From assembly GCF_056746865.1 (NCBI RefSeq), contig NZ_JBWKMP010000003.1: a stretch of DNA of 64,000 nucleotides; one strand, given 5' to 3'. How positions within the stretch are numbered: position 1 is the stretch's first letter; every line of letters starts with the position of its first letter. The notes beneath the pieces are model-generated. The model was not told the DNA's origin. It did not search any database and saw nothing but the letters and a program-made list of their open reading frames with translations. The position numbers were made by a program, and so were the translations under genes. The stretch comes from a plasmid. Shown piece by piece: positions 11,287 through 54,007 of this stretch.

Positions 11287-11300
11287 TTAATTTTCTAACA
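11287..11300 (-). promoter_or_regulatory. Operator half-site TTAATTTTCTAACA (C1-type operator candidate)
   Basis: Member of the 18-copy motif family. Lies upstream of the RepL-like gene. Confidence 0.6.
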
Positions 11301-11387
11301 CAGTGTGTTTTTATACACTGTTGATCCGACGGCACGTGATCGAGTAGGATCGCGGTCACTGCTCCGGTAGCGACTGCCAAAAAAAGC

Positions 11388-11412
11388 AAAAGCCGCTGAG
11401 TAGCGGCTTTTG
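11388..11412 (+). terminator. Intrinsic terminator after the head operon
   Basis: AGCCGCT-GAGT-AGCGGCT followed by TTTTGGG. Confidence 0.7.
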
Positions 11413-11472
11413 GGTGTATAAATCCACTGGCATAGATTTATACGGTAGATAGATTTTTCACGGAACTATCTG

Positions 11473-12435
11473 GTGAGTATTTTAAATTCAGTTTCAGTTA
11501 CTTTCAACACTTCTGAGTATAAAAACAACACTGAATACCACAAAAAAATCAAAGGTCATCAGTTGAGTTTTTTTGCTCGTCATAGCGGTTTTCTTTCCCC
11601 TTCACATAGCGCCATTATTGCCGAGTTCGCCAACCTGGCCGGAGCTACCGATGAATACATGATCCGTCGCTCATATGCGGATATGTCCGAGATTACAGGA
11701 CGCAGTATTTCTACTGTGCGCCGGGCATTTGCCGAAGCGACGAAGTGCGGAATGCTTGTTAAACAGCATCAGGTAGCGAATAACAATGCTCAGGTGTGTA
11801 ACGTGTACCGGTTTACAACACAATTTCTCCACTTCATTCATGTAGCAATGGAGATAGGGAGTAAGCAGGGCATCAAATTTGCCAACGCCACAAAACTGGT
11901 TAAGCAGTTGATTTCAAAGGTTCGTTATTTTTTTGAAACTGGGAACCCCCTGTTCAAATTGAACAAGTCCCCCCATGTTCAAAATGAACAGCCAATAGAA
12001 AATAAGAGTCACTCTATAGCCAAAAGAAGAGAAAGATCATGCGCGGTTCAGCCAAAGGCTTCACCAGCAGATAGTTCTCAAGCGGATAATGGGGGGCTGG
12101 ATAAAAAACCAGTAATCAGGGAAGAACATACCAACCACTGCCTGGCGGCGGCAAAAGCGAGAGCTGCAAAGCGTCGTTCAGATGAGGGGCACGCAAAACG
12201 GCAGGCTCTGTATCGTACCGCTGAAAAGCTGGCAAAAAAATTTGCATGGATACGTAGTGCCGCTACAGCAGTGAATAAGCCTAAACAATCCAGTGCCCTG
12301 GATTTCTCAATGGATTATTCTGGCTCCCAGGGGTGTGCAACCATTTGTGAAGCCTTTGACCTGATGAAACAGCGTGGCTATCGGTCTGAATTTGACCGGG
12401 AAGACTGGTCAATTCCGGAGGGCTTTCGGGGATGA
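11473..12435 (+). CDS. Winged-helix DNA-binding protein, candidate RepL-type lytic replication initiator
   Basis: GTG start, 320 aa. wHTH-like segment MSEITGRSISTVRRAFAEATKCGMLV. Operator upstream (as with P1 Op53-kilA-repL) and internal palindromic repeats. Confidence 0.4.
   Translation: MSILNSVSVTFNTSEYKNNTEYHKKIKGHQLSFFARHSGFLSPSHSAIIAEFANLAGATDEYMIRRSYADMSEITGRSISTVRRAFAEATKCGMLVKQHQVANNNAQVCNVYRFTTQFLHFIHVAMEIGSKQGIKFANATKLVKQLISKVRYFFETGNPLFKLNKSPHVQNEQPIENKSHSIAKRRERSCAVQPKASPADSSQADNGGLDKKPVIREEHTNHCLAAAKARAAKRRSDEGHAKRQALYRTAEKLAKKFAWIRSAATAVNKPKQSSALDFSMDYSGSQGCATICEAFDLMKQRGYRSEFDREDWSIPEGFRG
11951..11990. repeat. Two tandem palindromes TGTTCAAATTGAACA / TGTTCAAAATGAACA, each preceded by a C-run
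   Basis: At 11951-11965 and 11976-11990, inside the RepL-like ORF. Candidate origin or protein-binding repeats. Confidence 0.5.
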
Positions 12436-12492
12436 TGTTGCGATTGACTGTACAATAACCGTGCGGCGGGAATTTCATCGCTCGAAAATGTA

Positions 12493-12521
12493 TGTTAGGA
12501 AATTAAATTGATGTTTCTAAT
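12493..12521. promoter_or_regulatory. Inverted operator pair TGTTAGGAAATTAA-a-TTGATGTTTCTAAT
   Basis: Bivalent operator upstream of immI-like module 1, analogous to P1 Op51. Confidence 0.6.
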
Positions 12522-12724
12522 CAAGAATGTATGATTTACATTGTCACTAAAAAACAGCATTTGATAAAAATTCTGTTGATCTTTCTAATGTTCAGGCTTA
12601 TATTCATGCCGTCGTAGCAAATTCTGCGACCAGGTTTGACAGCCTGAATACTTACGCGGACAACCGCACATTTCCGATATTGCGGTATTTTTGTGTCCGT
12701 AAAACCACGTTACGCCCGAATTAT

Positions 12725-12799
12725 GGTGGGGCGTGATGGGGAGGCTTCGGCCTGCTGGTTTCGTAAGTGCCAGTCTGTCAACCCTGTCACGTCCTGCCA
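12725..12799 (+). ncRNA. c4: C4-type antisense immunity RNA, copy 1
   Basis: A 14-17 bp terminal helix (GGGGCGTGATGGGG / CCCTGTCACGTCCT with four G.U pairs) is followed by GCCA. Inside are a UUCG hairpin, a loop containing TCGTAAGT (b') and unpaired CTGTCAA (a'). These complement ACTTACGA (12833-12840, overlapping the icd SD) and TTGACAG (12805-12811). Confidence 0.65.
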
Positions 12800-12850
12800 C
12801 CTGTTTGACAGCGGGTCGCAGGTTGTTTATCAACTTACGAGGCCGTAACT

Positions 12851-13782: not shown

Positions 13783-13979
13783 TGGACATCATGCAGGCGG
13801 TAAAAAAAATCGGGGAAGGACAGGCTGAAGTGTGCCGCCGTAAAGCATGGAGTGTTGGTGTATGGGTCTGGCCTGATAATAGCTCTACTACTGGATGGTT
13901 TTGTATTAATGGATACCAGATCCGGGAAGTCGATTTATCGACGGCGGATGCAGTCGGTAATGATTGGATCGTAACTTGA
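13782..13979 (+). CDS. Small DUF2829 (Tad2-like)-type protein
   Basis: 65 aa from the ATG overlapping the Rha stop. Pattern ..RRKAWSVGVWVWP....DWIVT matches the C-terminus fused to the Rha paralogue at 55025-55966. Confidence 0.6.
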   Translation: MDIMQAVKKIGEGQAEVCRRKAWSVGVWVWPDNSSTTGWFCINGYQIREVDLSTADAVGNDWIVT

Positions 13980-14496: not shown

Positions 14497-14633
14497 ATAT
14501 TTCTCCCGCTCATGGGTTAATAAGTAGGCAAACTATGGTGAGTATGTGATTTTGACGGTAGTGTCGTTCATCCCTGAAAATAACATTCTCCATACCCTCT
14601 CAAACCGAACCGCTTAAGGCGGATTTAACGGTT

Positions 14634-17600: not shown

Positions 17601-20600
17601 CAGCAAGCTGTCTTTAATGCTGTGGAAATGGGGCGTCTTGACCTGGCGTCTGGTAAACACCGTGATGCGCAGAAGAAGAACAAGATTAAGGATCAGGCCG
17701 CGAATACCGGTACAACGAAGAAGCAGAATATCCCGTACTTTGAGGATATGAACTTCGATAGCGTGATAGCCGACGAGGGGCATAACTACCGCAACTCCTT
17801 TAATGCCGGGCGTGAAGCGGGACAACTGGCATATTTGCCTAACCCGGCAGTATCCAAGATGGCCCGCGACATGGCTGTAAAAGCTGCGTACATGATGAAA
17901 CGCAACAACGGGCGTGGTGTAGTCATGCTGACGGCAACACCGCTGGTGAACAGTCCGATTGATGCCTTCAACATGCTGTCTACTGTCATTCCGCAGGAAG
18001 AGTGGATGCGCATGGGCATCATTACGCCTGATGATTTCGTTCGTGTGTTTGGTAAAACAGCCACAGTTCAGGTCCAGAAAATTTCCGGGGAAGTGGAAGA
18101 GAAGCAGGGGCTGGTTGGCTTCCAGAACCTTGATGGCCTGCGTGGTATTTTCCATCGCTGGACTACTCTGAAGACTGCTGCGGACGTCGGGGCGACGGTT
18201 AAAATCCCTGATATTGTCGAGAATACCTTGCAGATCCCGATGACAGGGGAGCAGGAGGCTGCTTATGAAGAGCTTCGTAAGCGTGCACAGGAGTTAAGTA
18301 GTAAAGATGCGCTGACGGTTGATGAAAACGGGCATATCACAAACGAAAAACCGGATGATTTCATCTTCTCCATCATCCGCGACATGGATAAGGTTGCTAT
18401 AGATCCGGATCTGTATGCCAGTGCGATTACATTCCAGTTCCCCGTTGAGCTTGCAGACAAGGTAAAAGCTATTGCTGATGCCCTGCCAAAAGTAGCTGGC
18501 GGTAAAGTGGCAGATGATGCAGACGAGGCCGAAGAAGACGGCGCTGGTGGGCTGGTTAGTACGCGCACCAGTAAGGTAGTGAAGACCACCTTTAGTGAAC
18601 ATCCGGCGCATGTTGAAATACGTGCCAGCATTGAACTGGAAGCTGAAATACTGAAGGCCATTGCTGCCGCCGGGATTGATATGCAGCAGGTATCACACCC
18701 AATCCCGCCGAAGTATGCCGCGCTGATCGAAAACCTTCGTGAAGGTCTGAAGAACGGTAAACAAATTGTCTTCATTGATGAAAAAGCCCAGCACCAGAAG
18801 CTGCGCCGTATTATCGCCAGTGCACTGCAAATGCCGGAGCAGGAGATAGGCATTATCAATGCGACGACCGTTAGCCAGGCTGGCGGCATCAAGCTGAAGA
18901 AGGTGAATAAGCCGACTGAACCTACTCCGAATAAAAACGGTGAATACAAAGAAGGGGCATGGGAAACCTACTACAGCAAACTTGCCCAATATGAGGATTA
19001 TCTCTCAGCTAAAAATGATGCTGGCCTTGAGGGTATGGAAGGCATTGCCGCCGACTATAACGAAGGGCGCACGCGCATAATTATCTGTAACAAGAAGGCT
19101 GAAGTAGGTATTAACCTGCATATCGGGACAACCGATATCCACCACCTGACACTACCCTGGACACCAGCCAGTATCGACCAACGAAATGGGCGCGGTGCGC
19201 GCGTAGGTTCACCGCAAGAGAAGGTCAATGTTCACTACTATTGTGGCAAAGGCACATTCGACGACTTCCGTCTGGATACGCTGAAACGTAAGAAAGACTG
19301 GATCAAGATGGTAATGACCTCCGACATGTCAGAGATCGCCAATGGTGATGCGGATGATGCTGATGAACGCGCCATTATGCTGGCGGCAAACCCGGAAGAA
19401 CGCCGCGCAATCATGGCTCGCCAGGCGCAAGAGCGTGAAGAACGTCTGAAACTGAAAGCACAGCGCGAGGCCAACAATGCTCTCGATATCTACCTGAAAG
19501 CGGCAAACGCCGCTGGAAAAGATATCGGCATGATGGAGACAGAACTGAAAAGCGCGATGGAACAGATAGAGTATTACCAGCGAAATCTTGACGACCTGAT
19601 AAAAGCGGGTACGAACAGGAATGGGCAAAAATTCGCGCTTGAGCAGTTGAGTAGCTACAGAAAACGTGCGCGGGTGCTGCGGTTTGCGATCACCAGGGCA
19701 AAAGACGCGGATACCATAATGAAACGCTCTCGTGGTGATGTGGAGCGCGCTATTAAGTCTGGTGTGCTGGATATCAGTATCGATGTTATTCAGAACCCAC
19801 AGGAATATATGCGCACTGACAAGAATATCCTGTTGCATAAAGGTAGTTATTACCGTGCAGTCATTGATGATCGCGAAACAACAGCGATTGTCCGGGTGGA
19901 AAAAATTGACGGTGAAAAAGCACAATACCTCTGCCGTATCGCCTGGCTGGATAGAGCAAGTCGTTACGCTCGATCACCGGGGTCAATCGTTACATTGCCG
20001 TTTGACTCTGTGATTGAAGCGGTAACTTTTGAAGAGGGGGTAGCTGAATCGCGCGCAACGGCTGCGCGTGGTGTTCAGTGCCACCAGCTATCAACAATAC
20101 TTACTCGCGATCAGTTCTATGATGCTATTCGCAATGGGGTAATGAATGTTATTGCTGGTAAACCTGGTAATGCATGGGGCGGTGGGTCAGCTATTAAATA
20201 CTGGGCATATCGCACAGATGATGGTCAGATCGCGCTGTCATCGGCCTATGATGGCGTGATAGGCCAAAAAATCGGGCGAGCATCGGATATAGCACCTGAA
20301 CGATGGATATATCCAGATGGCAACGATGAGGCGCTGAAGCGTGAAGTGGCAAAAATACAAGCCAGTGATAACCCGCTGAATATCGTGGACGGCGAGGGAT
20401 TCCTCCAGGCATTGTATGGGTATGATTACATCCAGGGAATGCAGGCATGGGGCGCACAGGCAACGATGGATGATGTTGTCCAGGAGTTCGAAAACTGGAT
20501 GGCTGGGCGTGGTCTGTCAGGTCGTTCGCTTAATAAAGTCACTTCTGAAGATATTCTTAGCTTGTTCCGCAAACCGTCCGGAGAAGGTCTGGAATCATTC

Positions 20601-21958: not shown

Positions 21959-22219
21959 ATGCGGAAGAATCGTAGGTTTACGATCGACGACTTAAAAGCG
22001 TACTCACAAGGGAAGGGATACGCCCTTGAATACCACCGTTATAAGCGGGTATTTACCCTGCGGCATATAGAAAACCCTTCGAAATGGGGATGGATTTATT
22101 TTCCGCACACTGACGATAAGCTGGTGGGACTTGTTGATGATTTATCCTATGAAGGATGGATGATTGCTATCGACAAGGCGGTTACGGAAATTAACGAACC
22201 TGATAAAATAAACCATTAA
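21959..22219 (+). CDS. Hypothetical protein
   Basis: 86 aa, starts 2 nt after the previous stop. Confidence 0.65.
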   Translation: MRKNRRFTIDDLKAYSQGKGYALEYHRYKRVFTLRHIENPSKWGWIYFPHTDDKLVGLVDDLSYEGWMIAIDKAVTEINEPDKINH

Positions 22220-22395
22220 AAATAACAAGTTGGGTAAATGACATACAATTTACCCGGCTTGTTGACCCGCATCACCATTTACTCTAAAAACAAGTCCGAC
22301 CTGTTGCATCCGCCTATCTCTTCAGTAGTATTCCCCTCGGTTTTGATAAAACTAACGCTCTTGTTATTATCGTGTTCATGATTTCAGGAAGTTTG

Positions 22396-23408: not shown

Positions 23409-23460
23409 GTTGCCTGAGTCTTTTTATTGAAATTGCATACTAATAAAATATGTTAGAAAA

Positions 23461-23474
23461 CTAATTTCAAGAAA
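23461..23474 (+). promoter_or_regulatory. Operator half-site TGTTAGAAAACTAA
   Basis: Lies 11 nt upstream of the 23485 start. Confidence 0.55.
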
Positions 23475-23484: not shown

Positions 23485-24693
23485 ATGAGTCAGCAAGTAG
23501 AATCATCAAGCCTGGAGATCATCTCAACCGCAATTGAAACGCTGCGGACACAAATCGCGCTTATACAGAAACGAAATCCGGGCGATGACCTGTCAAAGCG
23601 ACTGCATGAGAGCGTCATTGCCACTACAGATAACCTGGTGGCGGAAATCAACCAGCTCCTTGATGATGGGGCAGTTGATTACAATAAGCTGGTGGATCAG
23701 TTTGAGGAATATCAGCAAGCCGTTAATGATGGCTTGATCCGTTTTTCTCAAGTCACTGGTGTATCAGCGACAGTTGAAAGCCTGGGGGATGCAGTTAATC
23801 AATTTGCCGCGAATATGCGTAATGAGATCGGCAATCTGGAGGCGCGTCTTGAGCAGGCAAATACACTGCGCAAATCTGCTGAAGTCGATTTGAGTCGTTA
23901 CAAAAAAGACTATCCGCCAAGCCTGACAAAACGACTGGATGTTGCGGAGAAAGATAACCGCACGCTGAAAAGAGAGCGTCGGGAACTAAAAGAGCGTTTA
24001 ACCAAGCTAAATCAGCAATGCGTTGAGTATCAAGGCGAACTCGTCACACTGCGTAAAAAGTTAGCAGCGGCGCAGAGCATTATTGAAACATTGAAACGAG
24101 AGTGCTCAGAGCTTGGTCATGATCTGAATCGCGCCTGTGGCATGGGGCAAAGGCCAGAGACATTCCCGCTAATGTATGACGGAAGAGAAGCTATTGCCTA
24201 TATCCATGAGTTTCCGCATGGTCTGGTCGCGGAGACTGGGCAACGTGGCGAAGCGTTGCTGACGGCAAATTACCATCAGCAAATCAGAACCAGCCGCCTG
24301 CTGACGATGGATGTGATCCCGTCAGTATGGGGAACGCCGCTTTACTACCGAATTCCTGGCTTCGAAACTGACTGGAATACCGACATAGACGAATGTCTGG
24401 CAGATAAAATTATGGCGTACCTTGAAACGGATTTTCCACGCTTGCATCGCCGGATTATGGACTCTAAGGATGCACCGATCGACGAATTGAAAATGCGTCC
24501 AGAGACGTTGGAGGCAATCAAGCAGACTGAGTTTGATACAGTGTTCAGTGTGGCCTGCATTCCAAGCAGCTTTCATGAAAGCATTCCGTTCATGCAGGGC
24601 GATCGCCGTCAGGAAATAATTGATGCTTGCCGGGTATGGGCGAACGAGTGGGATAAGAAGAACGGTGGAGTTGAAAATCTTTACGGGAAATAA
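23485..24693 (+). CDS. Hypothetical protein with N-terminal coiled coil, operator-flanked
   Basis: 402 aa with SD AAGGGAAC. The first ~210 aa have heptad-like coiled-coil character. I recognise no catalytic motif. Confidence 0.8.
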   Translation: MSQQVESSSLEIISTAIETLRTQIALIQKRNPGDDLSKRLHESVIATTDNLVAEINQLLDDGAVDYNKLVDQFEEYQQAVNDGLIRFSQVTGVSATVESLGDAVNQFAANMRNEIGNLEARLEQANTLRKSAEVDLSRYKKDYPPSLTKRLDVAEKDNRTLKRERRELKERLTKLNQQCVEYQGELVTLRKKLAAAQSIIETLKRECSELGHDLNRACGMGQRPETFPLMYDGREAIAYIHEFPHGLVAETGQRGEALLTANYHQQIRTSRLLTMDVIPSVWGTPLYYRIPGFETDWNTDIDECLADKIMAYLETDFPRLHRRIMDSKDAPIDELKMRPETLEAIKQTEFDTVFSVACIPSSFHESIPFMQGDRRQEIIDACRVWANEWDKKNGGVENLYGK

Positions 24694-24695
24694 TG

Positions 24696-39979: not shown

Positions 39980-40615
39980 TCAGATATCGGCCTTATTCGG
40001 AATTTTATCAGCCACCAGCGGCAATAAAGCCTTCGCCATTTCATGAACCAACATGGCATCAATGACGCCTAGCGTATGGCCCGGTTTAATGTTTAATGCC
40101 GCCTCAAGATGACTCCTTTCCAGGCCGCTTTTCTCGGCTTGTTTATGACGATCTGGTGTAATAACTTCGCCCAAAACGCGGCTAATTTTTTCTCGTAATT
40201 GCTGGGTGCCAGCACACTTGATCGCTGTATCGTGGAGACGGTTAACCAGTTCGCGATAAACATGCGGCTTAATGCGGATACGTTCACCGGTGACGCCCTT
40301 TCCTGGCGCTGGCACCGAACTATCCGGATAGTTGCCAGCCTCGTAAGCTACCCGCAGCCAGTGCATGAATGTTTCAGTGGACACACAACCACAGTCCACA
40401 TCGATTTTTCCGCGTTGCTGTTCCAGCCACTGCTCAAAATTCAATCTACACGTATTACTTTCATGTTGCTCTTTTTGTCTCAAGGCCAGCATCTGCTGGG
40501 CTATTTCCAATACTTCATCTGCCGTATATCCAGCACCGTGACCATACATTTCGATACGGGAAATAATCTCTGATATACGCTCTTCAGTGATTCTGGTCAT
40601 TTCTTTTTGCGCCAT
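39980..40615 (-). CDS. Hypothetical protein sharing a ~35-aa module with 52539-53150
   Basis: PHVYRELVNRLHDTAIKCAGTQQLREKI versus PHIYRELVNALRDIAAVYHGTEQLRERL. The start could be 40600. Confidence 0.7.
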   Translation of the reverse strand: MAQKEMTRITEERISEIISRIEMYGHGAGYTADEVLEIAQQMLALRQKEQHESNTCRLNFEQWLEQQRGKIDVDCGCVSTETFMHWLRVAYEAGNYPDSSVPAPGKGVTGERIRIKPHVYRELVNRLHDTAIKCAGTQQLREKISRVLGEVITPDRHKQAEKSGLERSHLEAALNIKPGHTLGVIDAMLVHEMAKALLPLVADKIPNKADI

Positions 40616-40968
40616 TTCTTTTCACATTCCTTAGTCCATTTTTCAATGTTCATTTTGGCAATATCAGTCATTCCATCACCTAAGAAATACTTTTTCCGGT
40701 ATGTCTTGCACTTAAACCACACTACAACAGCCACCAGCCAGAAAATAAAAGGCCATACAGCAATACCAACGACAGCCGCGATAAAGCCCAATAGCCATAA
40801 ATGAAGCTCTCCAACTTCTGTTTCCGGCAATATTCTTAAAGAATTAAACAGCAGGCTGAACGAATGGTCGTATGCATTGGCGGTATAAGACATGCAATCC
40901 ATATAATTAAAGTCATAGCCTGCGGCTGCCGCCCATAATGGGCGGTCAAGAAAATGTTTTAGTGTCAT
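40597..40968 (-). CDS. Membrane protein
   Basis: 123 aa with two strong TM helices (LWLLGFIAAVVGIAVWPFIFWLVAVVVWF). Confidence 0.7.
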   Translation of the reverse strand: MTLKHFLDRPLWAAAAGYDFNYMDCMSYTANAYDHSFSLLFNSLRILPETEVGELHLWLLGFIAAVVGIAVWPFIFWLVAVVVWFKCKTYRKKYFLGDGMTDIAKMNIEKWTKECEKKWRKKK

Positions 40969-40977
40969 TATATAAAT

Positions 40978-41271
40978 TTAAGGTTCAGACCAGTTATCTT
41001 CAATAGCAATGCTTAATCTTTGTAGCCATTCTGCTAATTTCAGCATTGCTTCTCTTTCGCTTAAACCACGAGGAAAATCATCAAGCGAAATTGTTGGCTT
41101 GAATCCCCCGCAATTATCCATTTCAACTGTCAGATTTTGTTCCAGCACGGTATTTCTTACGCGGCTATTGTGCCGAAGCAAATATACTGAGCGTGATTTA
41201 TTGGTTTTGTGGTCTAGCTTATATTCGGTAAGTATCATCTGGCTTTTGCCATGATTATTACCTCTCCACAT
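40978..41271 (-). CDS. Hypothetical protein
   Basis: ATG at 41271 with SD GTGAGG, 97 aa. The longer track ORF start lacks an SD. Confidence 0.6.
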   Translation of the reverse strand: MWRGNNHGKSQMILTEYKLDHKTNKSRSVYLLRHNSRVRNTVLEQNLTVEMDNCGGFKPTISLDDFPRGLSEREAMLKLAEWLQRLSIAIEDNWSEP

Positions 41272-41449
41272 ACTTACCTCACTTAATAAAACAACTCCAT
41301 GCGTAGTTGATGATTTTTTCCCACGTAATATAAATCTGCACTCCGGCAGTAAAACCAAAGCCAACAATTGCTGAAAAAATCAAAACATTTACTTTTGACA
41401 TTATAAATTTTCTCTCGGTGTCGTAGGTGATAGCACCATAATTGATAAT

Positions 41450-41683
41450 TTAGTGAGTTAGCAGTTCCATTTTTTTGATGATTTCCGCATGAGCATCATC
41501 GTTATCAACACTTAGCTCGTTTAATGCTTCTCGCACTACATCAACTTCTTCAGGCTGAAAGAAGTCGTCGCGGTAATCACCAAATAGAACCGAAACCAGC
41601 CTGCCACCAGCAACATCAAGATTGGCGCTAACAGGTGGCTCTTTGCCATCCTCAAATTCGACTACAAAAGTTAATTTTCCCAT
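41450..41683 (-). CDS. Hypothetical acidic protein
   Basis: 77 aa compact ORF in the operon. Confidence 0.65.
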   Translation of the reverse strand: MGKLTFVVEFEDGKEPPVSANLDVAGGRLVSVLFGDYRDDFFQPEEVDVVREALNELSVDNDDAHAEIIKKMELLTH

Positions 41684-41759
41684 CGTTACCCCCAGAAGAT
41701 AAAAATAGCGGCAATCGCCATAGCTACGCCTACAATCGCAAATGCTTCAGGCCAGCTTA

Positions 41760-42020
41760 TTACCTCACCTCCAGTCTCCATACCGCCTGACCAATCCGGC
41801 TGGCATGGGTATCTTTGGATACTGTTCCATCTTTAGCCAGCTCCATAAGAATTTTGCGCAAATCTGCCGAACGCCATTCTTCATCAGGAAATTCCTTCTC
41901 CATTGCCAACCGCAGATTCCAGGTTGCTATCGTGAATGGATATTCCCCGCCGAGAGCTTTCTCTTGCAGGGCAGCACGGGAACGTATCACCTGCAAAACC
42001 TTCTCTTTTACATCCATCAT
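41760..42020 (-). CDS. Hypothetical protein
   Basis: ATGA overlap with the upstream stop and SD GGAGG. 86 aa. Confidence 0.65.
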   Translation of the reverse strand: MMDVKEKVLQVIRSRAALQEKALGGEYPFTIATWNLRLAMEKEFPDEEWRSADLRKILMELAKDGTVSKDTHASRIGQAVWRLEVR

Positions 42021-42715
42021 TTTGCCTCCTGCGGCGGTTCTGGTAGCGGCATCCAGTGTGATGGTATCCACGACGCACCAGGTATTACCCACCCATCATT
42101 AGCGTCAGGATGCCCCGGGATGTAAGTCGCCCATTTCATTCGCCAGTCACCTTTCCTGTCAAACTCCCTGGCAACAAGAACGGCTGTTTTGGTATCCGGC
42201 ATTCGCTCACTACAGCTTATCCAACTATCCGGAATTACCGGATAGTTGCCCGACAGCTTGTTCAACTTGTAAGTCTGGCTTACAGGTTTGGCACCATGAA
42301 GCATGGCGTCGCTCCGCTCTATGCCATCCAGCGCGATTCGCAGTGCCTGAATTGTGGTAGAGCTATCGTTTGGGGCTATTCCATATCGCTCGAATACAGC
42401 TAAATGGTTGCGCATAATCTCAGGCGTAAGCTCTTTGTAAGCATAAGCAAGAGACTCTGATGCATTATCCGGCACAACCGACGCAAGCGCGGCAGCATAA
42501 ACAGGAATAACGTCCACTTGCTCTTTATTGCTTTCATCCGTTAAAGCCCAGAATAATTTCCCGGCCGGATGTTTGAAAATATAAGCAATTGGTTCTGCTT
42601 CCAGCGATGCCAGAGCAATTTCATACGACCGTCGCTCAATATTGTCTCGCACGTCCAGGCTGCTGATACGCTCTTTGATTTCTTTAATCAGTTCTTTGTC
42701 GGTTAAAGTGGTCAT
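42017..42715 (-). CDS. DUF551-domain protein
   Basis: The C-terminus WISCSERMPD..VLVA....WIPSHWMPLPEPP is the DUF551 pattern. Confidence 0.8.
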   Translation of the reverse strand: MTTLTDKELIKEIKERISSLDVRDNIERRSYEIALASLEAEPIAYIFKHPAGKLFWALTDESNKEQVDVIPVYAAALASVVPDNASESLAYAYKELTPEIMRNHLAVFERYGIAPNDSSTTIQALRIALDGIERSDAMLHGAKPVSQTYKLNKLSGNYPVIPDSWISCSERMPDTKTAVLVAREFDRKGDWRMKWATYIPGHPDANDGWVIPGASWIPSHWMPLPEPPQEAK

Positions 42716-42725
42716 AAATTATGCC

Positions 42726-42962
42726 TCAGTTGTATCCGATTGGATTAACCGCAACAAGAACGCCATCCGCGAACAAATCTTTAATGAGGTGTTCGCTCGG
42801 CTCGCCTTTTTCGTACTCTTCAATAAGGTAAGTGTCTCCATCTTCATTGATATAAACAGGAAGGATGGAGCCGTTGATAAAGTAGGTTCCGTTGTTATCG
42901 AGGATTTTTGCCTCGGCGATTTGTTTTTTGGTAAAACGCTCTTCTTTTGTCAAAGTTGCCAT
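42726..42962 (-). CDS. Hypothetical protein
   Basis: ATG at 42962 with SD AAGGAAAG, 78 aa. Confidence 0.6.
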   Translation of the reverse strand: MATLTKEERFTKKQIAEAKILDNNGTYFINGSILPVYINEDGDTYLIEEYEKGEPSEHLIKDLFADGVLVAVNPIGYN

Positions 42963-42963
42963 A

Positions 42964-43182
42964 TCAGCTTTCCTTATATGGGTTGATTTTGTTGTGCAAT
43001 GTGTTGAACGACGCCCATACCACGTCGTTATACAATTCAATAACTGGCTCAATTATTTTCCCGATTCCCCATACCAGAATTAACGGGGATATCGGTATCA
43101 TCAACACGATAAACAGAATGAGAAACAGAAATTCTGTTATTCGGCTTCTTTGCGGATATTCTTTTCTGAATAATGTTGGCAC
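42964..43182 (-). CDS. Small membrane protein (GTG start)
   Basis: 72 aa. TM region FLFLILFIVLMIPISPLILVWGIG. The start is coupled to the upstream stop behind GGAGAG. Confidence 0.55.
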   Translation of the reverse strand: MPTLFRKEYPQRSRITEFLFLILFIVLMIPISPLILVWGIGKIIEPVIELYNDVVWASFNTLHNKINPYKES

Positions 43183-43183
43183 A

Positions 43184-43405
43184 TCACTCTCCTTTGCCCG
43201 CAGCTTTCGCCTGCTCTTTAGCAAGTCGCTCCGCTTCTCTGAAATCCCAATCCACTCGATGTGCGATATCAATTGCAGAACGCACGGTTCGTTCAATTAG
43301 CGTATCCAGGTTATCAATTGTCATTGCCATATCTGGATTTCGAGATAAAATCTCCGCCCTCTGAATCTGCCAGTTGTTACAGGTTTCAAGTAATGAGTTA
43401 GCCAT
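43184..43405 (-). CDS. Hypothetical protein
   Basis: ATG at 43405 with SD GGAGAG, 73 aa, ends ..AAGKGE. Confidence 0.6.
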   Translation of the reverse strand: MANSLLETCNNWQIQRAEILSRNPDMAMTIDNLDTLIERTVRSAIDIAHRVDWDFREAERLAKEQAKAAGKGE

Positions 43406-43406
43406 A

Positions 43407-43595
43407 TCACTCTCCTTTAGTGCGCAAGTGGTTTTTCCAGCGGTTTTGCGCCGCGCTGGGCTTTTTGCAAAAACCACAATCCATCATCCCGTAATATTTC
43501 ATCAACCCCATCCGTCGGTTGCTGAGTCTCACCCACTGCCAGACGCCAGGAGCGTTTCTACGAACTAACAGAATCTTTGCTTTACGGTTTTTCAT
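43407..43595 (-). CDS. Small basic protein, MKNRKAK family
   Basis: 62 aa with an ATGA overlap upstream. Contains a CGFC motif. Confidence 0.55.
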   Translation of the reverse strand: MKNRKAKILLVRRNAPGVWQWVRLSNRRMGLMKYYGMMDCGFCKKPSAAQNRWKNHLRTKGE

Positions 43596-43768
43596 CTTAC
43601 AGCGTACCCTTTCTTCCGCCTGTTCTGTGACGCAGTAGGCTTACGCTTTGCGGCAAAAGCCACCTGACCAAATGGATGGAGTACCGCTATCTTATGGTTG
43701 CTAATAACCAGCTCCACCACACGCACAGGTCGCTGTAAAAAAAGTCGTTTTGCCTTACGGTTTTTCAT
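43592..43768 (-). CDS. Small basic protein, MKNRKAK family (below track cutoff)
   Basis: 58 aa: MKNRKAKRLFLQRPVRVVELVISNHKIAVLHPFGQVAFAAKRKPTASQNRRKKGYAVR. ATGA overlaps on both sides. Confidence 0.45.
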   Translation of the reverse strand: MKNRKAKRLFLQRPVRVVELVISNHKIAVLHPFGQVAFAAKRKPTASQNRRKKGYAVR

Positions 43769-43941
43769 CGCTTTGCTCTCCTGCGTCTCTTTGCTGCTCG
43801 TCGTGCCGCTGCAATACCGGTATGGCGGCGCTTTGGTGCCGGGATGATGTTGTCAGCCATCAGGACATACGGCTTTGCAATTAGCGCAGAAGCCCAAAAA
43901 CGAGTCGGGTACGGTAACAAGCCGATACATGCCACACGCAT
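43765..43941 (-). CDS. Small basic protein (below track cutoff)
   Basis: 58 aa: MRVACIGLLPYPTRFW..RRAAKRRRRAKR. TAATG overlap with the upstream gene. Confidence 0.4.
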   Translation of the reverse strand: MRVACIGLLPYPTRFWASALIAKPYVLMADNIIPAPKRRHTGIAAARRAAKRRRRAKR

Positions 43942-44693
43942 TACTCACCTCCTTTGATGCGAATGCCTGCGGCGCGGATTGCAGCGATGACTTCAGAAAC
44001 TTTGTATGCCATTACCGTTTGGTAATCATCGTGAAAATCTGTTCGATGAAGCATGCTGCTACGTTCCGGGAGCGATATTTCCCGAGCATCCAGTTCCTTA
44101 ACGCGTTCCTCCAGTTCGTAGACCCTGCATTGTTCTCTATCATCAATCAGATATACCCCAAGACATTCGCTTTCTACCCAACCGCCAAAATCATGATCGT
44201 AACGCTCACATGAAAACTCACCGTCACCGTCCTTTGTTGGAATGGTGTAACTATCTAATGGGCCACCATATGTCGGCACATTTCCCAATGTTGGATGCTC
44301 AATCCACATGAAAAATGCACGTCCGGTTATTGGGCAAATATCTGGCCGCCATTGGTTACGAACAGCCTTGGTTTCGGATAATTCTTCAGCGTGTTGTTTT
44401 ACTTCCTCAAGCTCAACTCTCAGCTTCCCTACCGTTAGCGCAATATCCTCGTTCTCCTGATCGCGGCGTTTTATGTATTGCTGGTTTCTTTCCCGTTCAT
44501 CCAGCAGCGCCAGCACGGTTTCTGGTCCGGTCAGAAATTTGAAGGCGTTGAGCGCATCAATATCCACACCGTAATCTTTAAGTTCCTGTTCACTTAACAA
44601 ATCATCATCAGCTGGCAACATTAACAGGCGTTCCATTGCTGGAATTGCACGTTCCGCCGCCTCACGCAGTGCCTGGTAATTAATTTCGCTCAC
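43941..44693 (-). CDS. Ead/Ea22-like protein
   Basis: GTG start overlapping the upstream TGA. N-terminus INYQALREAAERA. Shares a 36-aa / 108-bp segment with 50855-51505. Confidence 0.8.
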   Translation of the reverse strand: MSEINYQALREAAERAIPAMERLLMLPADDDLLSEQELKDYGVDIDALNAFKFLTGPETVLALLDERERNQQYIKRRDQENEDIALTVGKLRVELEEVKQHAEELSETKAVRNQWRPDICPITGRAFFMWIEHPTLGNVPTYGGPLDSYTIPTKDGDGEFSCERYDHDFGGWVESECLGVYLIDDREQCRVYELEERVKELDAREISLPERSSMLHRTDFHDDYQTVMAYKVSEVIAAIRAAGIRIKGGE

Positions 44694-45352
44694 TGGTTGC
44701 CTCCTTTGCGAAGCTGGGCAGCAAAGTCAACTAACCACTCAGTCATTTCAACCTTCCCTACCAGGTCGGAACCAGGGTGCATACAGCAATCACTCTGCGC
44801 CGCTTTGAAATCCTTACACTCATATTCTTTGGCCACCAGATTTTTTGCAGCTTCTATAGCAGCATCCACCCCCTGCGCCCGCACTTCAGCCAGAAAAGCA
44901 TCGGTAGCTGGAGTTTCGCTGTGGTGTAGGGCATCGTTGATAATCATTGCAGCAACACCAGCCTGCCCTGCATCCGTGACCGACACATGCTCAAGAGTTA
45001 CGGCCATTGCGTGTTTCAGCCCAGCGTTCTCTGCCACCAGCGCAGCGATATTAGTCTCAAGCTCTGAAATTCGGCACGTGGCATCAATATTTGTGTCCTC
45101 CAAGCACTTAATTTCACCAAGCAGCTCCAGTGCAACCTTTGGGTTGAACGCGGCAACATGACGAGCGTTGTTCTCTGCATTTTTCTGTCCATCAAAGCCG
45201 GTCCATTTGATAACGTCTTCACATCGTTCATCACCGGGCGTGTGCACCGCATAAGTACCAGTATCCGTCGAAATAAATGCGACCCATTCGTCTGGTGTTG
45301 CCTTTTCTGCCGCCTCACGCAGTACCTGATAGTCAATTGTCATTCTCGCCAT
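44690..45352 (-). CDS. Ead/Ea22-like protein
   Basis: N-terminus DYQVLREAAEKA, internal [14 protein letters not shown]-terminus AAQLRKGGNQ. Confidence 0.8.
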   Translation of the reverse strand: MARMTIDYQVLREAAEKATPDEWVAFISTDTGTYAVHTPGDERCEDVIKWTGFDGQKNAENNARHVAAFNPKVALELLGEIKCLEDTNIDATCRISELETNIAALVAENAGLKHAMAVTLEHVSVTDAGQAGVAAMIINDALHHSETPATDAFLAEVRAQGVDAAIEAAKNLVAKEYECKDFKAAQSDCCMHPGSDLVGKVEMTEWLVDFAAQLRKGGNQ

Positions 45353-45984
45353 CCTTCACAGTTGTAATCACTACAGCCTTCAAAATCATATGGGCTGTAC
45401 TGCCAGGTTATTTTTCCGCAATGCGGACAATTCCAACGCACCTTCCCGCTTCGCGACTTCTTTCTTCTGTTCTGCTCTTTCAACCAGTCAGGCATGATCA
45501 AACCTGCGCCCTGAACCATTGTTCTGCGGTTAAAGTTATTGATATTGAACGTCCGGCGCTTTGCTGCATCAGCAATGGAAAATGGCAACCAAACTATTCC
45601 TGGTTCGTTTTTGTTGGCGACGCTAAAGATGGTCGCTTTACTGAAGTCATCTGTTGGCAATCCACCGTGTTGAAGCCAGTAAACATCGTTGCCGTTCCAG
45701 CTACCTTTTTTGTAGGCCACATACGCAGTGCAATCTGACTCAATCAGGCTTTCTGTAGGGATGTACTGGCAATCAACGTGCCACACAGCCATTGCATCCA
45801 CGCTATCAGCGCAAACAGGCTGATCGATATCTCGCCCACAATTCCAGGCTTTTTGGGCTTCTTCCAGCGTGTAAACATGAGCGCGATCGATATCAGAGCT
45901 ATAACCATTGCCGTTATGGCAATGGAATGAGGCGTTATTACCCACAGTTTCACGCAAGCACATCATGTAAAAACGGTTACTCAC
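45340..45984 (-). CDS. Hypothetical Cys-rich protein
   Basis: GTG start at 45984 overlapping the upstream TGA. C-terminus WNCPHCGKITW..CSDYNCEGW suggests a zinc ribbon. Confidence 0.65.
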   Translation of the reverse strand: MSNRFYMMCLRETVGNNASFHCHNGNGYSSDIDRAHVYTLEEAQKAWNCGRDIDQPVCADSVDAMAVWHVDCQYIPTESLIESDCTAYVAYKKGSWNGNDVYWLQHGGLPTDDFSKATIFSVANKNEPGIVWLPFSIADAAKRRTFNINNFNRRTMVQGAGLIMPDWLKEQNRRKKSRSGKVRWNCPHCGKITWQYSPYDFEGCSDYNCEGWRE

Positions 45985-46220
45985 TGGTTGCCTCCTTGGC
46001 GGAGTTGCGCTGCGATGCATGAAAAAAAAGACTCCCGAGTGTGACAGTTAAGAGCTGGTGCGAACGCCGCGTTAAGAACGGCGGCATCACAGCCGTCATC
46101 AATATAGAGCGCAATTTTTTTCTCCAGGCGCGCTTTGGCTTCCTGCAACTGCATACCCCGGCACGCACGCGGGATATAATCAGCAATTTGAGCGATAGCT
46201 TTTTCGTTCTGTTTAAACAT
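45981..46220 (-). CDS. Hypothetical protein ending in the QLRQGGNQ module
   Basis: 79 aa with the shared C-terminal junction motif. Confidence 0.6.
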   Translation of the reverse strand: MFKQNEKAIAQIADYIPRACRGMQLQEAKARLEKKIALYIDDGCDAAVLNAAFAPALNCHTRESFFSCIAAQLRQGGNQ

Positions 46221-46416
46221 GCTTCACCTCGATAGGCTTGATGGTGTCTAACAGCAGTCGGCGGCGCGTATTTTCTGCAAAATGGCGGCGTCCAGTTTCT
46301 TTGTGGTAAAACTCGTTTTTGCCGACGACCCACATCCGCTCTGTTTGGTGCAGTTTTTTTACCTTCGGGCCATCTTTGGTGATCACGGTACCGGTATGGG
46401 TTTTTACGATTGTCAT
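46213..46416 (-). CDS. Hypothetical protein
   Basis: 67 aa, overlaps the next gene by 8 nt. Confidence 0.6.
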   Translation of the reverse strand: MTIVKTHTGTVITKDGPKVKKLHQTERMWVVGKNEFYHKETGRRHFAENTRRRLLLDTIKPIEVKHV

Positions 46417-46499
46417 GCCACTACCTATTCGAACAGATGAACGAGACAGGCCGATGCTCGTCCACCTGAAAAACTGACGATTTGATGCATACTCACGGT

Positions 46500-47228
46500 T
46501 TATTCCTGAATGCGCTTAAACTCGATTACCCACACCCAGGGATTAGCGTTCCAGCTTTCTTCACCATAGATGGATTCCCACAGGCGCTGGAACGCAACCT
46601 TGGCCATTGCGAAATCCCCCTTGGGAGTAAGGAATGTTCCCGGGTGATCAGGAAGCAAACTTCCAGCAGGCGGAACGCCCTCAGCCCTTGCATCGCATTC
46701 GCTGATATCGTTCAACCGTTCAACGCGCACGTTGGTAATTTCCAACAGAATGCGTGATGCCCATCGCGGCATGTGAATTGATGGACGCCACCCACCATCA
46801 AACTTTTCATTCACAGTGTGAGGTTTCCAGTCGGCATCATCGGGTATCGACCATAAGCCGTAATCACCAGGTTTTTGCTCGCAACTGGCCCGATAAATCC
46901 TTGCTGCGTTCTTCTCATCGCCACGACAAAGGTTGTCGTTCCAGTCCACACTGCAACCATCCTCATTGCCTAATATCGCCCATGTTTCACGAACCCAAAT
47001 TCGATCGCCGACGATACCAAATGGGCAATTGAAAACACTGCTTACACCATCAGCCCCGTACCACTGAAAACCTGCACCAATTTTTCTAACCATCACTGGT
47101 GCTTCTGGACCAACTTCCGCAGGCTGATTTTTCATTATCCGCCGCGTCTGCGTTTTCCTTCCTTCGAGGATGGCCCGGACCATCTCATCGTTAAAAATCA
47201 TCCCGCGTTCTTTCATTTTTTGATCCAC
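46500..47228 (-). CDS. Conserved phage protein with N-terminal ..MVRAILEGRKTQTRR.. motif (ASCH/PUA-like fold suspected)
   Basis: 242 aa. This motif is common in a family of phage proteins, but the function is not established by anything I can see. Confidence 0.7.
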   Translation of the reverse strand: MDQKMKERGMIFNDEMVRAILEGRKTQTRRIMKNQPAEVGPEAPVMVRKIGAGFQWYGADGVSSVFNCPFGIVGDRIWVRETWAILGNEDGCSVDWNDNLCRGDEKNAARIYRASCEQKPGDYGLWSIPDDADWKPHTVNEKFDGGWRPSIHMPRWASRILLEITNVRVERLNDISECDARAEGVPPAGSLLPDHPGTFLTPKGDFAMAKVAFQRLWESIYGEESWNANPWVWVIEFKRIQE

Positions 47229-48270: not shown

Positions 48271-48300
48271 TGTTAGAAAATTAAAATCAATATTCTAACA
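48271..48300. promoter_or_regulatory. Inverted operator pair TGTTAGAAAATTAA-aa-TCAATATTCTAACA
   Basis: Lies in the 100-bp gap between two leftward gene blocks. Confidence 0.65.
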
Positions 48301-52235: not shown

Positions 52236-52542
52236 GCACTCTCCTTTCGAAATAAACGTACTGATTAATCATGCCCAGGGGCATTTCGAACTTTTCTGCG
52301 ATCTCACGGCGGGGAACGCCACACTGATGAAGCTGCCGCGCCAGCTCTATATCGCTCTGCCGGTATTTGGCTGACTGGTGAAAGTCACCTTTCAGAATCA
52401 TGCTGATCCGCAATTGCCGCGCTTTAGTCCTGACAGCACCACCGGTACGCCCGATCAGTCTCCCAATACCCTCGACTGTCATAGTCCCGGCGCACTGGCG
52501 GAGTATCATGATTTCTGCCCTTCCCCATCCCCGCCAGCTCAC
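52225..52542 (-). CDS. Small HTH protein (GTG start)
   Basis: 105 aa with two HTH-like segments (MTVEGIGRLIGRTGGAVRTKARQL; VPRREIAEKFEMPLGMINQYV). Confidence 0.65.
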   Translation of the reverse strand: MSWRGWGRAEIMILRQCAGTMTVEGIGRLIGRTGGAVRTKARQLRISMILKGDFHQSAKYRQSDIELARQLHQCGVPRREIAEKFEMPLGMINQYVYFERRVHEV

Positions 52543-53150
52543 GCAGAACTCCTTCTAACCAAAAGAACGCCATCTTCAGAAACAACGTTGCAGGACTTCA
52601 GGTAATTCATTGCCTCTTTCGGTAATGGATTCTTTGGATCGGCGCTTGCCAGGGATTTCGATAACCTCATGATAAATTTGATCATTACCTTCTGACGGAG
52701 CTTGTGCTCATGGGATGCAGACAGGTAATAGGAAATGGTATGGGCTAAACGCTCACGAAGCTGTTCTGTGCCGTGATATACAGCAGCGATATCACGCAGT
52801 GCATTGACCAGTTCCCGGTAAATATGCGGAGCAACCTGGCATTCAATGTTGGTTGGTGACTCATAAATTACATTCAGCCCCAGCTTTTGAGCCAGCTCGT
52901 GCTCTGCACGAGCGCCAACTGATTCCTCCCACCCCTTGAGCAAATAGACCGCATTAGCCGAACGCACCATTGCAAGGCAAATATCCATGTATTCGCTCTG
53001 GCAGAGGCCAGCAGGTAACAGCGCCGGATTCAGAACAATATGCCCTACCTCCATCAGCTCTTTTGCTTTCGAAAAAAACGCTGTGCGGTTGTAGTCGGGA
53101 TAACCAGTCATCGGACCCGCGATGTAAATTTTCATAATGCGTTTTGACAT
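52539..53150 (-). CDS. DUF4406 / nucleoside 2-deoxyribosyltransferase-like protein
   Basis: MKIYIAGPMTGYPDYNR..GWEESVGARAEHELA is the DUF4406 pattern. The C-terminal half shares a module with 39980-40615. ATG at 53150. Confidence 0.75.
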   Translation of the reverse strand: MSKRIMKIYIAGPMTGYPDYNRTAFFSKAKELMEVGHIVLNPALLPAGLCQSEYMDICLAMVRSANAVYLLKGWEESVGARAEHELAQKLGLNVIYESPTNIECQVAPHIYRELVNALRDIAAVYHGTEQLRERLAHTISYYLSASHEHKLRQKVMIKFIMRLSKSLASADPKNPLPKEAMNYLKSCNVVSEDGVLLVRRSSA

Positions 53151-53302
53151 CAAAGTTTCCCCAGGAACGTTACGCAAAAGTTAATGAGAGCAAAGAGTTC
53201 AATGCCCAGCTCAAACAACGCCAGGACAGTGAAAAACAGGGCATATAGCAACCCAATTTCTGTACCGGATTGCTGGTGGATTGCACTTATTGCGACAAGC
53301 AT
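53150..53302 (-). CDS. Candidate 50-aa membrane peptide, first gene of the leftward operon (below track cutoff)
   Basis: SD AGGAGG. MLVAISAIHQQSGTEIGLLYALFFTVLALFELGIELFALINFCVTFLGKL. TGATG overlap with the next gene. Confidence 0.45.
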   Translation of the reverse strand: MLVAISAIHQQSGTEIGLLYALFFTVLALFELGIELFALINFCVTFLGKL

Positions 53303-53346
53303 CATGACCTCCTGATATAGCGTCTGAAAAAAGTATCTTCATTTTG

Positions 53347-53376
53347 TGTTAGAAAATCAATTTTGATTTTCTAACA
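53347..53376. promoter_or_regulatory. Perfect palindromic operator pair TGTTAGAAAATCAA-tt-TTGATTTTCTAACA
   Basis: Lies in the divergent control region between the leftward operon and ref. In P1, ref is C1-controlled. Confidence 0.7.
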
Positions 53377-53421
53377 CTTTTGATCAACCATAGCGGCGAT
53401 GTAGACAAACCGGGTATTTCT

Positions 53422-53997
53422 ATGAAGCAAAGCTATTGGGAGAAACAGACACAAAAAGCCCTGCAAAAACTGGCTGATCCGAAATGGCGGGAGGAACAAA
53501 GGGCAAAGCGTCTTCAGCAAGCTCAACGCCAGCAGCAGCGTGCGCGAGAAAAAGCCGCATCGCCTGAATATCGGCAAAAGAAAATTGAAAAAGCGAAGCA
53601 ATATGAACAGCGAAGAAAAGAGAAGGCCGCTTCTGCTCCTGTCAAAAAAACTCGCGCGTCACGCGGCCTGAAAGGCAGAACACTCACAGCAGATGAGCGC
53701 CGGATACAAACTGCCATCGGTGCTCTCCCCTGCATTGCCTGCCATATGCACGGACAGCATAGCCCTGTGGTATCCCTGCACCACATCTTCGGGAGAACAG
53801 CAGAAAACGCGCATAAATACGTCCTCCCTTTGTGTAAATGGCACCATCAACACGCAGCGCCAGCAGAGATCCGCGAGCAATACCCCTGGTTGGTTCCTGT
53901 TCATGCTGATGGAAAAATAGGCGGCAAAGCAGATTTCAGGCGGCACAATGCTGATGAAATGACGTTGTATCAGATGGTGACTGAATTAATAAATTAA
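53422..53997 (+). CDS. ref: Ref-family recombination enhancement nuclease (HNH)
   Basis: Lys/Arg/Gln-rich N-terminal ~95 aa, then LPCIACH..HHIFG....LPLCKWHHQ (HNH/zinc pattern of Ref). The ATG at 53422 is preferred to the TTG at 53380, which abuts the operator. Confidence 0.75.
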   Translation: MKQSYWEKQTQKALQKLADPKWREEQRAKRLQQAQRQQQRAREKAASPEYRQKKIEKAKQYEQRRKEKAASAPVKKTRASRGLKGRTLTADERRIQTAIGALPCIACHMHGQHSPVVSLHHIFGRTAENAHKYVLPLCKWHHQHAAPAEIREQYPWLVPVHADGKIGGKADFRRHNADEMTLYQMVTELIN

Positions 53998-54007
53998 TTT
54001 TCTAACA
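53994..54007 (-). promoter_or_regulatory. Operator half-site TTAATTTTCTAACA
   Basis: Overlaps the ref stop and lies upstream of immI-like module 2. Confidence 0.55.

Follow-up and report, generated by a model that had tools for sequence, protein, structure and literature searches.

The window analyzed here is a 64,000-nucleotide stretch of a plasmid (contig NZ_JBWKMP010000003.1 of RefSeq assembly GCF_056746865.1), which megablast identifies as part of a D6-like, P1-related plasmid-prophage of Escherichia coli; our subject is a 14-bp motif dispersed over its control regions, together with the element's own C1-type repressor, the predicted reader of that motif. Gene order is as in phages D6 and P1, with the orientation reversed. 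Tail fibre, lysis, darA/ddrAB, prt, pro and repL genes come first, followed by an icd/ant module, darB, ulx, a VRR-NUC (pmgM) gene, pmgR and pmgS; a tRNA/tciA island then precedes lpa, pacA, pacB, c1, the rox site, dre and the dut operon, and the remainder holds phd/doc, two long leftward arrays, ref, a second icd/ant module, mat and tail genes. The order lpa-pacA-pacB-c1-rox-dre is common to the window, D6 and P1. Megablast gives 99.7% identity to E. coli plasmid NZ_CP085065.1 across window positions 24000-36000, and about 83% identity to phage D6.

A sequence-only reading of this DNA had proposed that the motif, TGTTAGAAAATTAA, is a repeated operator confined to intergenic regions. Five exact copies are present in the window against 0.00 expected; at up to two mismatches the count rises to 16 against 0.74 expected, a number reached by 0 of 100 shuffles, and at up to three mismatches to 24 against 8.2. 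Read on the opposite strand, the motif is (TTAA)TTTTCTAACA. A 22-nt weight matrix derived from the window sites, which supplies the operator bit scores given below, yields a bimodal distribution in which 16 sites score 20.1-31.2 bits and the next best match 12.7. The repeat is therefore real. These 16 sites form 11 loci, all intergenic or at a gene boundary. Fourteen fall inside the non-coding 9.7% of the window (binomial P = 6e-13), a fraction set by a deliberately greedy open reading frame (ORF) map, and the remaining two lie at gene boundaries, one just 5' of c1 (32839) and one over the ref stop codon (53994); the claimed intergenic placement thus stands. A whole-replicon matrix scan, as the sequence-only reading had proposed, was carried out by proxy on two relatives: NZ_CP085065.1 holds 20 sites of at least 19 bits (next best 12.7) and D6 holds 15 of at least 17 bits, all of them intergenic by the respective annotations. 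Two loci of NZ_CP085065.1 (189/205 and 86256/86306) come in addition to those of the window.

Four strict inverted pairs were recovered (24696-24725, 28381-28410, 48271-48300 and 53347-53376), each exactly 30 bp long with a 2-nt centre, and the same register is found in every pair of NZ_CP085065.1 and D6. The last of them is a perfect palindrome, as had been stated. A fifth proposed pair, 12493-12521, dissolves on inspection: the arm at 12493-12506 is sound, and the arm at 12508-12521, which reads ATTAGAAACATCAA, has four mismatches and sits off register with a 1-nt gap against 2 nt in every other pair, so it is probably not a half-site. Single sites face either way with respect to the gene that follows. 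Consensus promoter hexamers, called as pattern matches and not as mapped starts, overlap or abut the sites at 8 of the 11 loci. Beyond these elements, an exact 14-mer scan of viral contigs gave only chance single matches among the matches listed, and the palindrome TGTTAGAAAA-N10-TTTTCTAACA, searched in genome contigs, matched only unrelated taxa (sphingomonads and assorted metagenome-assembled genomes), which is uninformative.

Predicted operators and their targets

In the P1 record NC_005856, annotated operators correspond one-to-one in position to the window loci, the matched counterparts being OrepL, Oc4, O26, OpmgR, Obanab, Olpa, Oref and Omat. The predicted operators (pairs given as unstranded), with target genes and transcripts, are as follows.

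11287-11300, minus strand: single operator between pro and repL; exact copy, 24.9 bits; D6 counterpart at 22467, P1 counterpart OrepL/Op53
11473-12435, plus strand: repL-like lytic replication gene, target; region homologous to D6 gp20, "lytic replication protein, similar to P1 repL"
12493-12506, plus strand: single operator abutting the -35 (TTGATG, 12508) of the first immI module (c4-a1b1, C4 RNA, icd, ant); at most two mismatches
12719-12804, plus strand: C4 antisense RNA of immI module 1, target transcript; Rfam RF01695, 69.6 bits
22396-22409, plus strand: single operator over the start codon of the VRR-NUC (pmgM-like) gene; 20.1 bits; P1 counterpart O26
23451-23464, plus strand: single operator over the -10 of the predicted pmgS promoter (TTGAAA-16-TATGTT, 23427-23454); 28.9 bits; P1 counterpart OpmgRa/b
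24696-24725, unstranded: bivalent operator directly 5' of the -35 of the tRNA/tciA island promoter; 31.2 + 27.4 bits; P1 counterpart the divalent Obanab
24846-24859, plus strand: single operator about 85 nt 3' of the tRNA/tciA island promoter; 24.7 bits
28381-28410, unstranded: bivalent operator 5' of lpa; 23.2 + 25.8 bits; P1 counterpart Olpa/Op94
28488-28880, plus strand: lpa, late-promoter activator gene, target; Pfam PF25716 BPP1_LPA, E 2.5e-50
32839-32852, minus strand: c1-proximal operator, 15 nt 5' of the c1 ATG as annotated in D6, 3' of the predicted Pc1; 23.9 bits
32927-32940, plus strand: weak c1-distal operator, about 88 bp from the proximal one and in inverse orientation to it; three mismatches
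34235-34248, minus strand: single operator 2 nt after the stop codon of dre (Cre-like), ahead of the dut-containing operon; exact copy
48271-48300, unstranded: bivalent operator lying over the promoter predicted for the leftward operon starting at 48228; 29.5 + 23.3 bits; D6 counterpart 80709/80725
53347-53376, unstranded: bivalent operator, perfect 30-bp palindrome with a 14-bp stem, between ref and a divergent leftward operon; 29.5 + 28.2 bits; P1 counterpart Oref
53994-54007, minus strand: single operator over the ref stop codon, 8 nt 5' of the -35 (TTGAAT, 54015) of the second immI module; exact copy, 29.9 bits
54668-54755, plus strand: C4 antisense RNA of immI module 2, target transcript; Rfam RF01695, 77.1 bits

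The sequence-only reading had matched the genes behind these sites to those of the P1 C1 regulon, and this identification is borne out for RepL (by D6 annotation), Lpa (by the Pfam match), two immI modules with C4 RNA, and the annotated ref; a single site that it placed at 23461 has its true coordinates at 23451-23464. Several positional details recur between the two systems. The operator at 12493 abuts the -35 of its promoter as P1 Oc4 abuts P2c4, and the site at 53994, downstream of which lie isrK-like and C4 RNAs, overlaps the ref stop codon as does P1 Omat. The divalent Obanab of P1 lies 5' of the dicF-like/tRNA/tciA/ban genes, as the window pair 24696-24725 lies 5' of the tRNA/tciA island, whose predicted promoter is TTGATT-17-TAGAAT at 24728-24756. 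D6 and two more distant relatives (L009 and the Enterobacter plasmid L183) likewise have a second site at this island, 125-150 bp away from the first, and 24846-24859 is a possible looping partner of 24696-24725. The site at 22396 lies at about +20 from a predicted promoter (TTGATA-16-TATTAT, 22343-22370), with the same ATG overlap in relative L008, and the pair at 48271-48300 covers a minus-strand promoter match, TTGATT-17-TATTTT, at 48290-48262.

At c1, the predicted promoter Pc1 (TTTACT-17-TAAATT, 32897-32869) is conserved and is flanked by the sites at 32839 and 32927. Conservation in the region 5' of c1, compared over 20 distinct sequences, is concentrated in both operator cores and in the putative -35 and -10, and it is highest in TTTAT.TTAGAAAA at the proximal site. 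The distal site at 32927, listed in the sequence-only reading as a single site, is weak at three mismatches, but its TTTTCTAA core is kept at that position in all 20 relatives. An operator directly after the recombinase stop is likewise kept in D6, L008, L009 and L010. At the window's post-dre site, positions 34242-34259 read TCTAA-N8-TTAGA, the spacing of the bivalent operators described below for P1 and for a third motif class, with a second half that is otherwise a poor match; TTAGA recurs after the operator core in NZ_CP085065.1 (N8) and D6 (N9).

The immI-type modules are complete in two copies in the window (12598-12804 and 54545-54755), against one in P1. Module 1 encodes c4-a1b1 and C4 RNAs and module 2 isrK-like and C4 RNAs (Rfam), and each RNA set is followed by icd and a Rha-family antirepressor gene. 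Elsewhere in the window, ARAGORN identifies 26381-26467 as tRNA-Ser(UGA), for which Rfam gives a sub-threshold tRNA-Sec-like match (44.6 against 47 bits); an STnc100-like small RNA match adjoins it at 26577-26714, also sub-threshold (40.8 against 47 bits). The match of the whole window to NZ_CP085065.1 is mosaic, with 14576-37075 at 99.7% and most remaining DNA at 92-99%, and that plasmid has no counterpart of window positions ~38900-46700 (about 39-47 kb). This region, where NZ_CP085065.1 carries a type I restriction-modification system and which matches D6 only in patches, is variable cargo within the second leftward operon.

C1 and the clade-specific motifs

The proposed reader of the motif is encoded within the window itself.

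31787-32824, minus strand: c1, D6-type prophage repressor of 345 aa, proposed motif binder, assigned by synteny with P1 immC and by C1 homology

The gene occupies the immC position of P1, between pacB and a lox-like site followed by a Cre-like recombinase gene, and its product is 80% identical to D6 gp1, annotated as "prophage repressor". NCBIfam NF041318 (phage_rep_C1) aligns colinearly at E 1.8e-5 and 24 bits against a cutoff of 500, so the protein is not an equivalog, and a search of the local Pfam copy gave no match to the window C1; the precomputed database Pfam label is PF27008 (Phage_P7_repressor_C1). Comparison of the C1 family profile with P1 C1 by hhalign gave 96.4% probability (E 1.4e-9, 226 columns, 20% identity), and the best tblastn match of the window protein within P1 falls in c1. 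Position and profile comparison together identify the product as a remote homologue of P1 C1, in agreement with the sequence-only reading. An exhaustive hidden Markov model search recovered 93 representative relatives, and C1 of this family is encoded by 153 PLSDB plasmids. Most of these relatives span 250-290 aa and align to positions 5-245 of the profile, so that the last ~100 residues form a C-terminal extension that belongs to the D6-type and class-3 proteins, the latter defined below.

We followed the motif across C1 clades of increasing divergence. Its TGTTAGAAAA core persists at syntenic positions both in D6, at ~83% DNA identity, and in relatives with a C1 of only 40-50% identity (L008, L009, L010 and L183), where the 3' TTAA drifts; in L183, ATTTTCTAAC occurs six times against 0.05 expected. 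C1 is about 30% identical in the Leclercia plasmid pE1_003 (L181), the Pantoea plasmid pEuc3 (L182) and a Citrobacter plasmid (L184), and no D6-type motif was found in these three. In its place, at syntenic positions, they carry a class-3 motif, AWTCTAAGG(N)TTT. Its copies lie 5' of c1, 5' of lpa, after a pmgS-like gene, before the VRR-NUC gene and, in L181 and L184, immediately past the recombinase stop. The class-3 motif was spotted by reading syntenic intergenic regions and then counted against expectation, which gave 7 copies against 0.22 in L184, 7 against 1.76 in L181 and a weaker 3 against 1.86 in L182, where the two exact copies sit 5' of c1 and of lpa.

7543-7555, 12373-12385, 13885-13897, 20213-20225 and 23269-23281 of L184: examples of class-3 sites

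A bivalent form, ATCTAAG-N6-CTTAGAT, occurs in L182 (26150/26163 and 27551-27569). Naive 10-mer counts in these distant plasmids were swamped by Chi, the commonest 10-mers of L181 and L182 all containing Chi GCTGGTGG or its complement, and 12-mer seeding at two mismatches returned noise.

P1 itself, with a C1 only 20% identical, carries ATTGCTCTAATAAATTT operators and has no D6-type site and no class-3 motif; conversely, the window holds 0 P1-type operators (17-bp consensus ATTGCTCTAATAAATTT, up to three mismatches). Since neither motif cross-matches between the window and P1, the sequence difference from the P1 operator that the sequence-only reading had noticed is real. The motif classes thus sort by C1 clade, with TTTTCTAACA in the D6 type, AWTCTAAGG in the Leclercia/Pantoea/Citrobacter plasmids and ATTGCTCTAAT in the P1 type. 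Because each clade has its own motif at equivalent positions, three C1 clades pair with three motifs. This pairing is the strongest computational argument for C1 as the binder, and it is still a correlation.

Aligned consensus sequences (P1, ATTGC-TCTAA-TAAATTT; D6, AATTT-TCTAA-CAyat; class 3, aAw-TCTAA-GGcTTTT) have in common CTAA, mostly as TCTAA and in P1 occasionally as ACTAA, with flanks that are clade-specific. We offer the shared TCTAA/CTAA core as a hypothesis, the probability that three AT-rich motifs share a pentamer by chance being non-negligible. Pair geometry differs: P1 Obanab is arranged as TCTAA-N8-TTAG over 28 bp, a layout shared by class-3 pairs (TCTAA-N8-TTAG(A)), whereas D6-type pairs read TTAGA-N16-TCTAA over 30 bp. 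On the CTAA alignment, D6-type pairs would have opposite polarity, with protomers facing the other way and two helical turns apart. The sequence-only reading had equated the operator logic with that of P1; given the opposite polarity and different spacing of the D6 pairs, this holds for the network and fails for pair geometry.

Competing explanations and a fold lead for C1

Taken together, synteny, homology and clade-wise pairing make it highly likely that the C1-type repressor encoded by the element itself (31787-32824) uses the motif as its operator. With C1 binding as a prediction, the system would be a heteroimmune member of the known C1 repressor-operator system with another specificity. 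In the plasmid prophage, C1 seated on about a dozen loci would silence sigma-70 early promoters, blocking them by sitting on the -10 or -35, adjoining the -35, or lying just 3' of the start site. The silenced set would comprise repL, both c4/icd/ant modules, lpa, the tRNA/tciA island, ref, pmgS, pmgM and two long accessory operons, and repression of lpa would in turn keep all late operons silent. C1 would autoregulate c1 through the two sites flanking Pc1, and looping may occur at c1 and at the tRNA-island promoter. A single site would hold one C1 protomer and the fixed 30-bp palindrome two.

Three points weigh against this assignment. Promoter assignments are weak at 11287, 34235 and ref. Co-variation of the motif with C1 is equally co-variation with every other diverged protein. 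Finally, the accessory circuitry of P1 appears not to be reproduced here: in a test at sequence level only, BLASTP detects no similarity between P1 Lxc and the ORF occupying the lxc position (21959-22219), and the c1-rox gap of about 200 bp contains no coi-sized ORF.

The second of these points leads directly to the best-surviving alternative, in which another DNA-binding protein, such as a small helix-turn-helix (HTH) regulator or an unrecognised factor, reads the motif and C1 reads something else. Several HTH proteins are annotated in the replicon, and motif classes would co-vary with any diverged regulator. However, the accessory HTH genes belong to toxin-antitoxin cassettes, and the sites match the experimentally defined C1 operators of P1 in position, down to the ref stop codon and the divalent tRNA-island site. 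Moreover, the best-conserved site lies directly 5' of c1 in every relative, and early promoters carry no second repeated intergenic motif, the only other one found marking late operons. We therefore regard a different regulator as improbable.

Less probable again, and in our view very unlikely, is that the motif is a promoter element for RNA polymerase or Lpa. In the pairs, TTAGAA and TAACAT/TAACAC stand 17 bp apart, resembling weak -35/-10 hexamers (scores 5-7), and TTGAT variants in the 3' half give -35-like hexamers at several loci. Yet single sites occur in both orientations, their positions range from 5' of the -35 to over the start codon, and the targets are early and immunity functions. 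Late operons, by contrast, have a motif of their own, and none carries TGTTAGAAAA. This motif, AAATCACACNCT-N3-TANNNT, has 9 matches in the window against 0.51 expected and lies just 5' of the lydA, ddrB, prt, darB, mat, gene 26 and gene 7 late operons.

2386-2406, 6152-6172, 8523-8543, 14578-14598, 57483-57503, 58572-58592 and 61407-61427, plus strand: late-operon motif
14532-14552 and 55125-55145, minus strand: late-operon motif

With AAATCACAC at about -22 in addition to TANNNT, AAATCACACNCT-N3-TANNNT probably serves the D6 clade as its Lpa-dependent late promoter; the P1 -22 box, AAGTGACTT, is different. Since this separate motif marks the late operons, a late-promoter role for the operator motif was ruled out. 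Matches to the P1 late-promoter consensus, AAGTGACT-N5-TANNNT, show no enrichment in the window (15 against 12.8 expected); one perfect copy at 58491-58509 on the minus strand lies between mat and gene 26 and points away from both.

A last suggestion, that the palindromic copies are intrinsic terminators or structural DNA and the single copies their decayed halves, has in its favor a terminator scan that picked 53346-53377 (a 14-pair stem followed by TTTT), but it is scarcely credible, as the stem is nearly all A/T with four G-C pairs, lies between divergent genes with nothing to terminate, and most copies are single and asymmetric yet conserved as well as the pairs.

Returning to C1 as the binder, structure prediction supplied a lead on how it might read such a site. 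An AlphaFold2 model of C1 built from 11 sequences had a predicted local distance difference test (pLDDT) value of 82 and a predicted template modeling score (pTM) of 0.49. Foldseek against the PDB returned four significant matches, all of them structures of E. coli Tus in complex with Ter DNA (E 6.7e-8 to 1.9e-6, probability 1.0, ~305 columns, template modeling (TM) scores 0.34-0.40), and the next match had E 0.04. Sequence comparison lends the resemblance no support: alignment of C1 with Tus by hhalign gave probabilities of 0.2% with a narrow profile and 5.4% with 85 C1-family sequences, the Tus profile itself being shallow because the retrieved family is nearly all above 82% identical. In the 85-sequence alignment, C1 67-196 is colinear with Tus 124-264, and the strand bearing the invariant R159 falls on the Tus 229-233 strand. 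The Tus family, PF05472, had no Pfam match in 11 C1 members even at E up to 10, a BFVD structure search with the C1 model gave no significant match, and no C1-Tus link was found in literature searches. A Tus-like fold for C1 is thus a lead and not a finding, and we hold it tentatively, at best as an evenly balanced proposition. The resemblance of Ter, ATGTTGTAACTAA, to two sites reading ATGTTAGAAAACTAA requires a 2-nt gap and fails for the consensus, and is not relied on.

A broader picture built on this lead is more doubtful. Under it, the C1 proteins of P1-, D6- and related phage-plasmids would be Tus-fold, monomeric, clamp-like readers of long asymmetric sites; they would be the first relatives known for Tus and could plausibly have supplied the "plasmid gene" from which tus may have been domesticated. 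They would recognize an invariant CTAA core and take their specificity from three to four flanking bases per side (P1, TTGC..T; D6, TTTT..CA; class 3, AW..GG), and the D6 clade would have re-invented the bivalent operator with inverted polarity. If the fold is indeed Tus-like, it would explain how the repressor reads an asymmetric site and would tie a replication terminator of otherwise unknown ancestry (PMC6549158) to phage repressors.

Comparison with known systems

Clinical and animal Enterobacteriaceae commonly harbor D6-like and P1-like phage-plasmids, which carry resistance genes; in P1, C1 activity decides between lysis and lysogeny (PMC8546580). For the D6 clade, the operator set described here amounts to a predicted regulon, and the lack of D6-type sites in P1 and of P1-type sites in the window predicts heteroimmunity with P1. 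Three specificities on one core would also offer orthogonal repressor/operator pairs and a testable recognition code.

Among systems outside this family, the repressor gp71 of mycobacteriophage L5 binds 13-bp asymmetric operators and "stoperators". The likeness lies in one repressor serving many scattered asymmetric sites, some at promoters and some within or after transcription units; however, the proteins belong to unrelated families (that of L5 is an HTH protein), and the strong orientation bias of the L5 stoperators contrasts with the window sites, which occur in both orientations. The Tus-Ter barrier of Enterobacterales differs in role, since that of C1 is transcriptional repression and fork arrest is not known for it.

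The same system as in the window is found in phage D6 (MF356679 / NC_050154) and in D6-like plasmid prophages of Escherichia, Salmonella and Shigella. Strong sites number 15 in D6 and occupy the corresponding places, and the D6 C1 is 80% identical to that of the window, which represents a distinct c1 allele, and some pairs in the window are single sites in D6, and vice versa. Operators are annotated in neither D6 GenBank record, and no description of them was found in literature searches, which did not cover the D6 genome and Dre papers.

The closest known system is that of P1/P7 C1, the immC regulon, with operators Op2, Op21, Op51, Op53, Op68, Op72ab, Op82, Op83, Op86, Op88, Op94 and Op99. 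P1 C1 has 22 operators with an asymmetric 17-bp consensus and controls RepL and Lpa (PMC8546580). As in P1, a homologous repressor is encoded at the same genome position, and asymmetric AT-rich sites serve singly and as inverted pairs, with eight to nine single sites and four strict pairs in the window. Also as in P1, the sites are dispersed at repL, c4/icd/ant, lpa, ref, pmgR/S, pmgL/M, the tRNA-tciA island and c1; a second layer of immunity is formed by C4 RNA and Ant (C4 twice, c4-a1b1 and isrK, with Rha-type antirepressors), and late genes are reached through Lpa. Unlike in P1, C1 is only ~20% identical and bears a ~100-aa helical C-terminal extension, the operators depart from the P1 17-bp consensus ATTGCTCTAATAAATTT and share only the CTAA/TCTAA core, and there are two immI modules against one. 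By these comparisons, the predicted D6-clade system is of the same kind as that of P1, without detectable Lxc or Coi, and is set apart from it by a different specificity, a different pair geometry and a duplicated immI.

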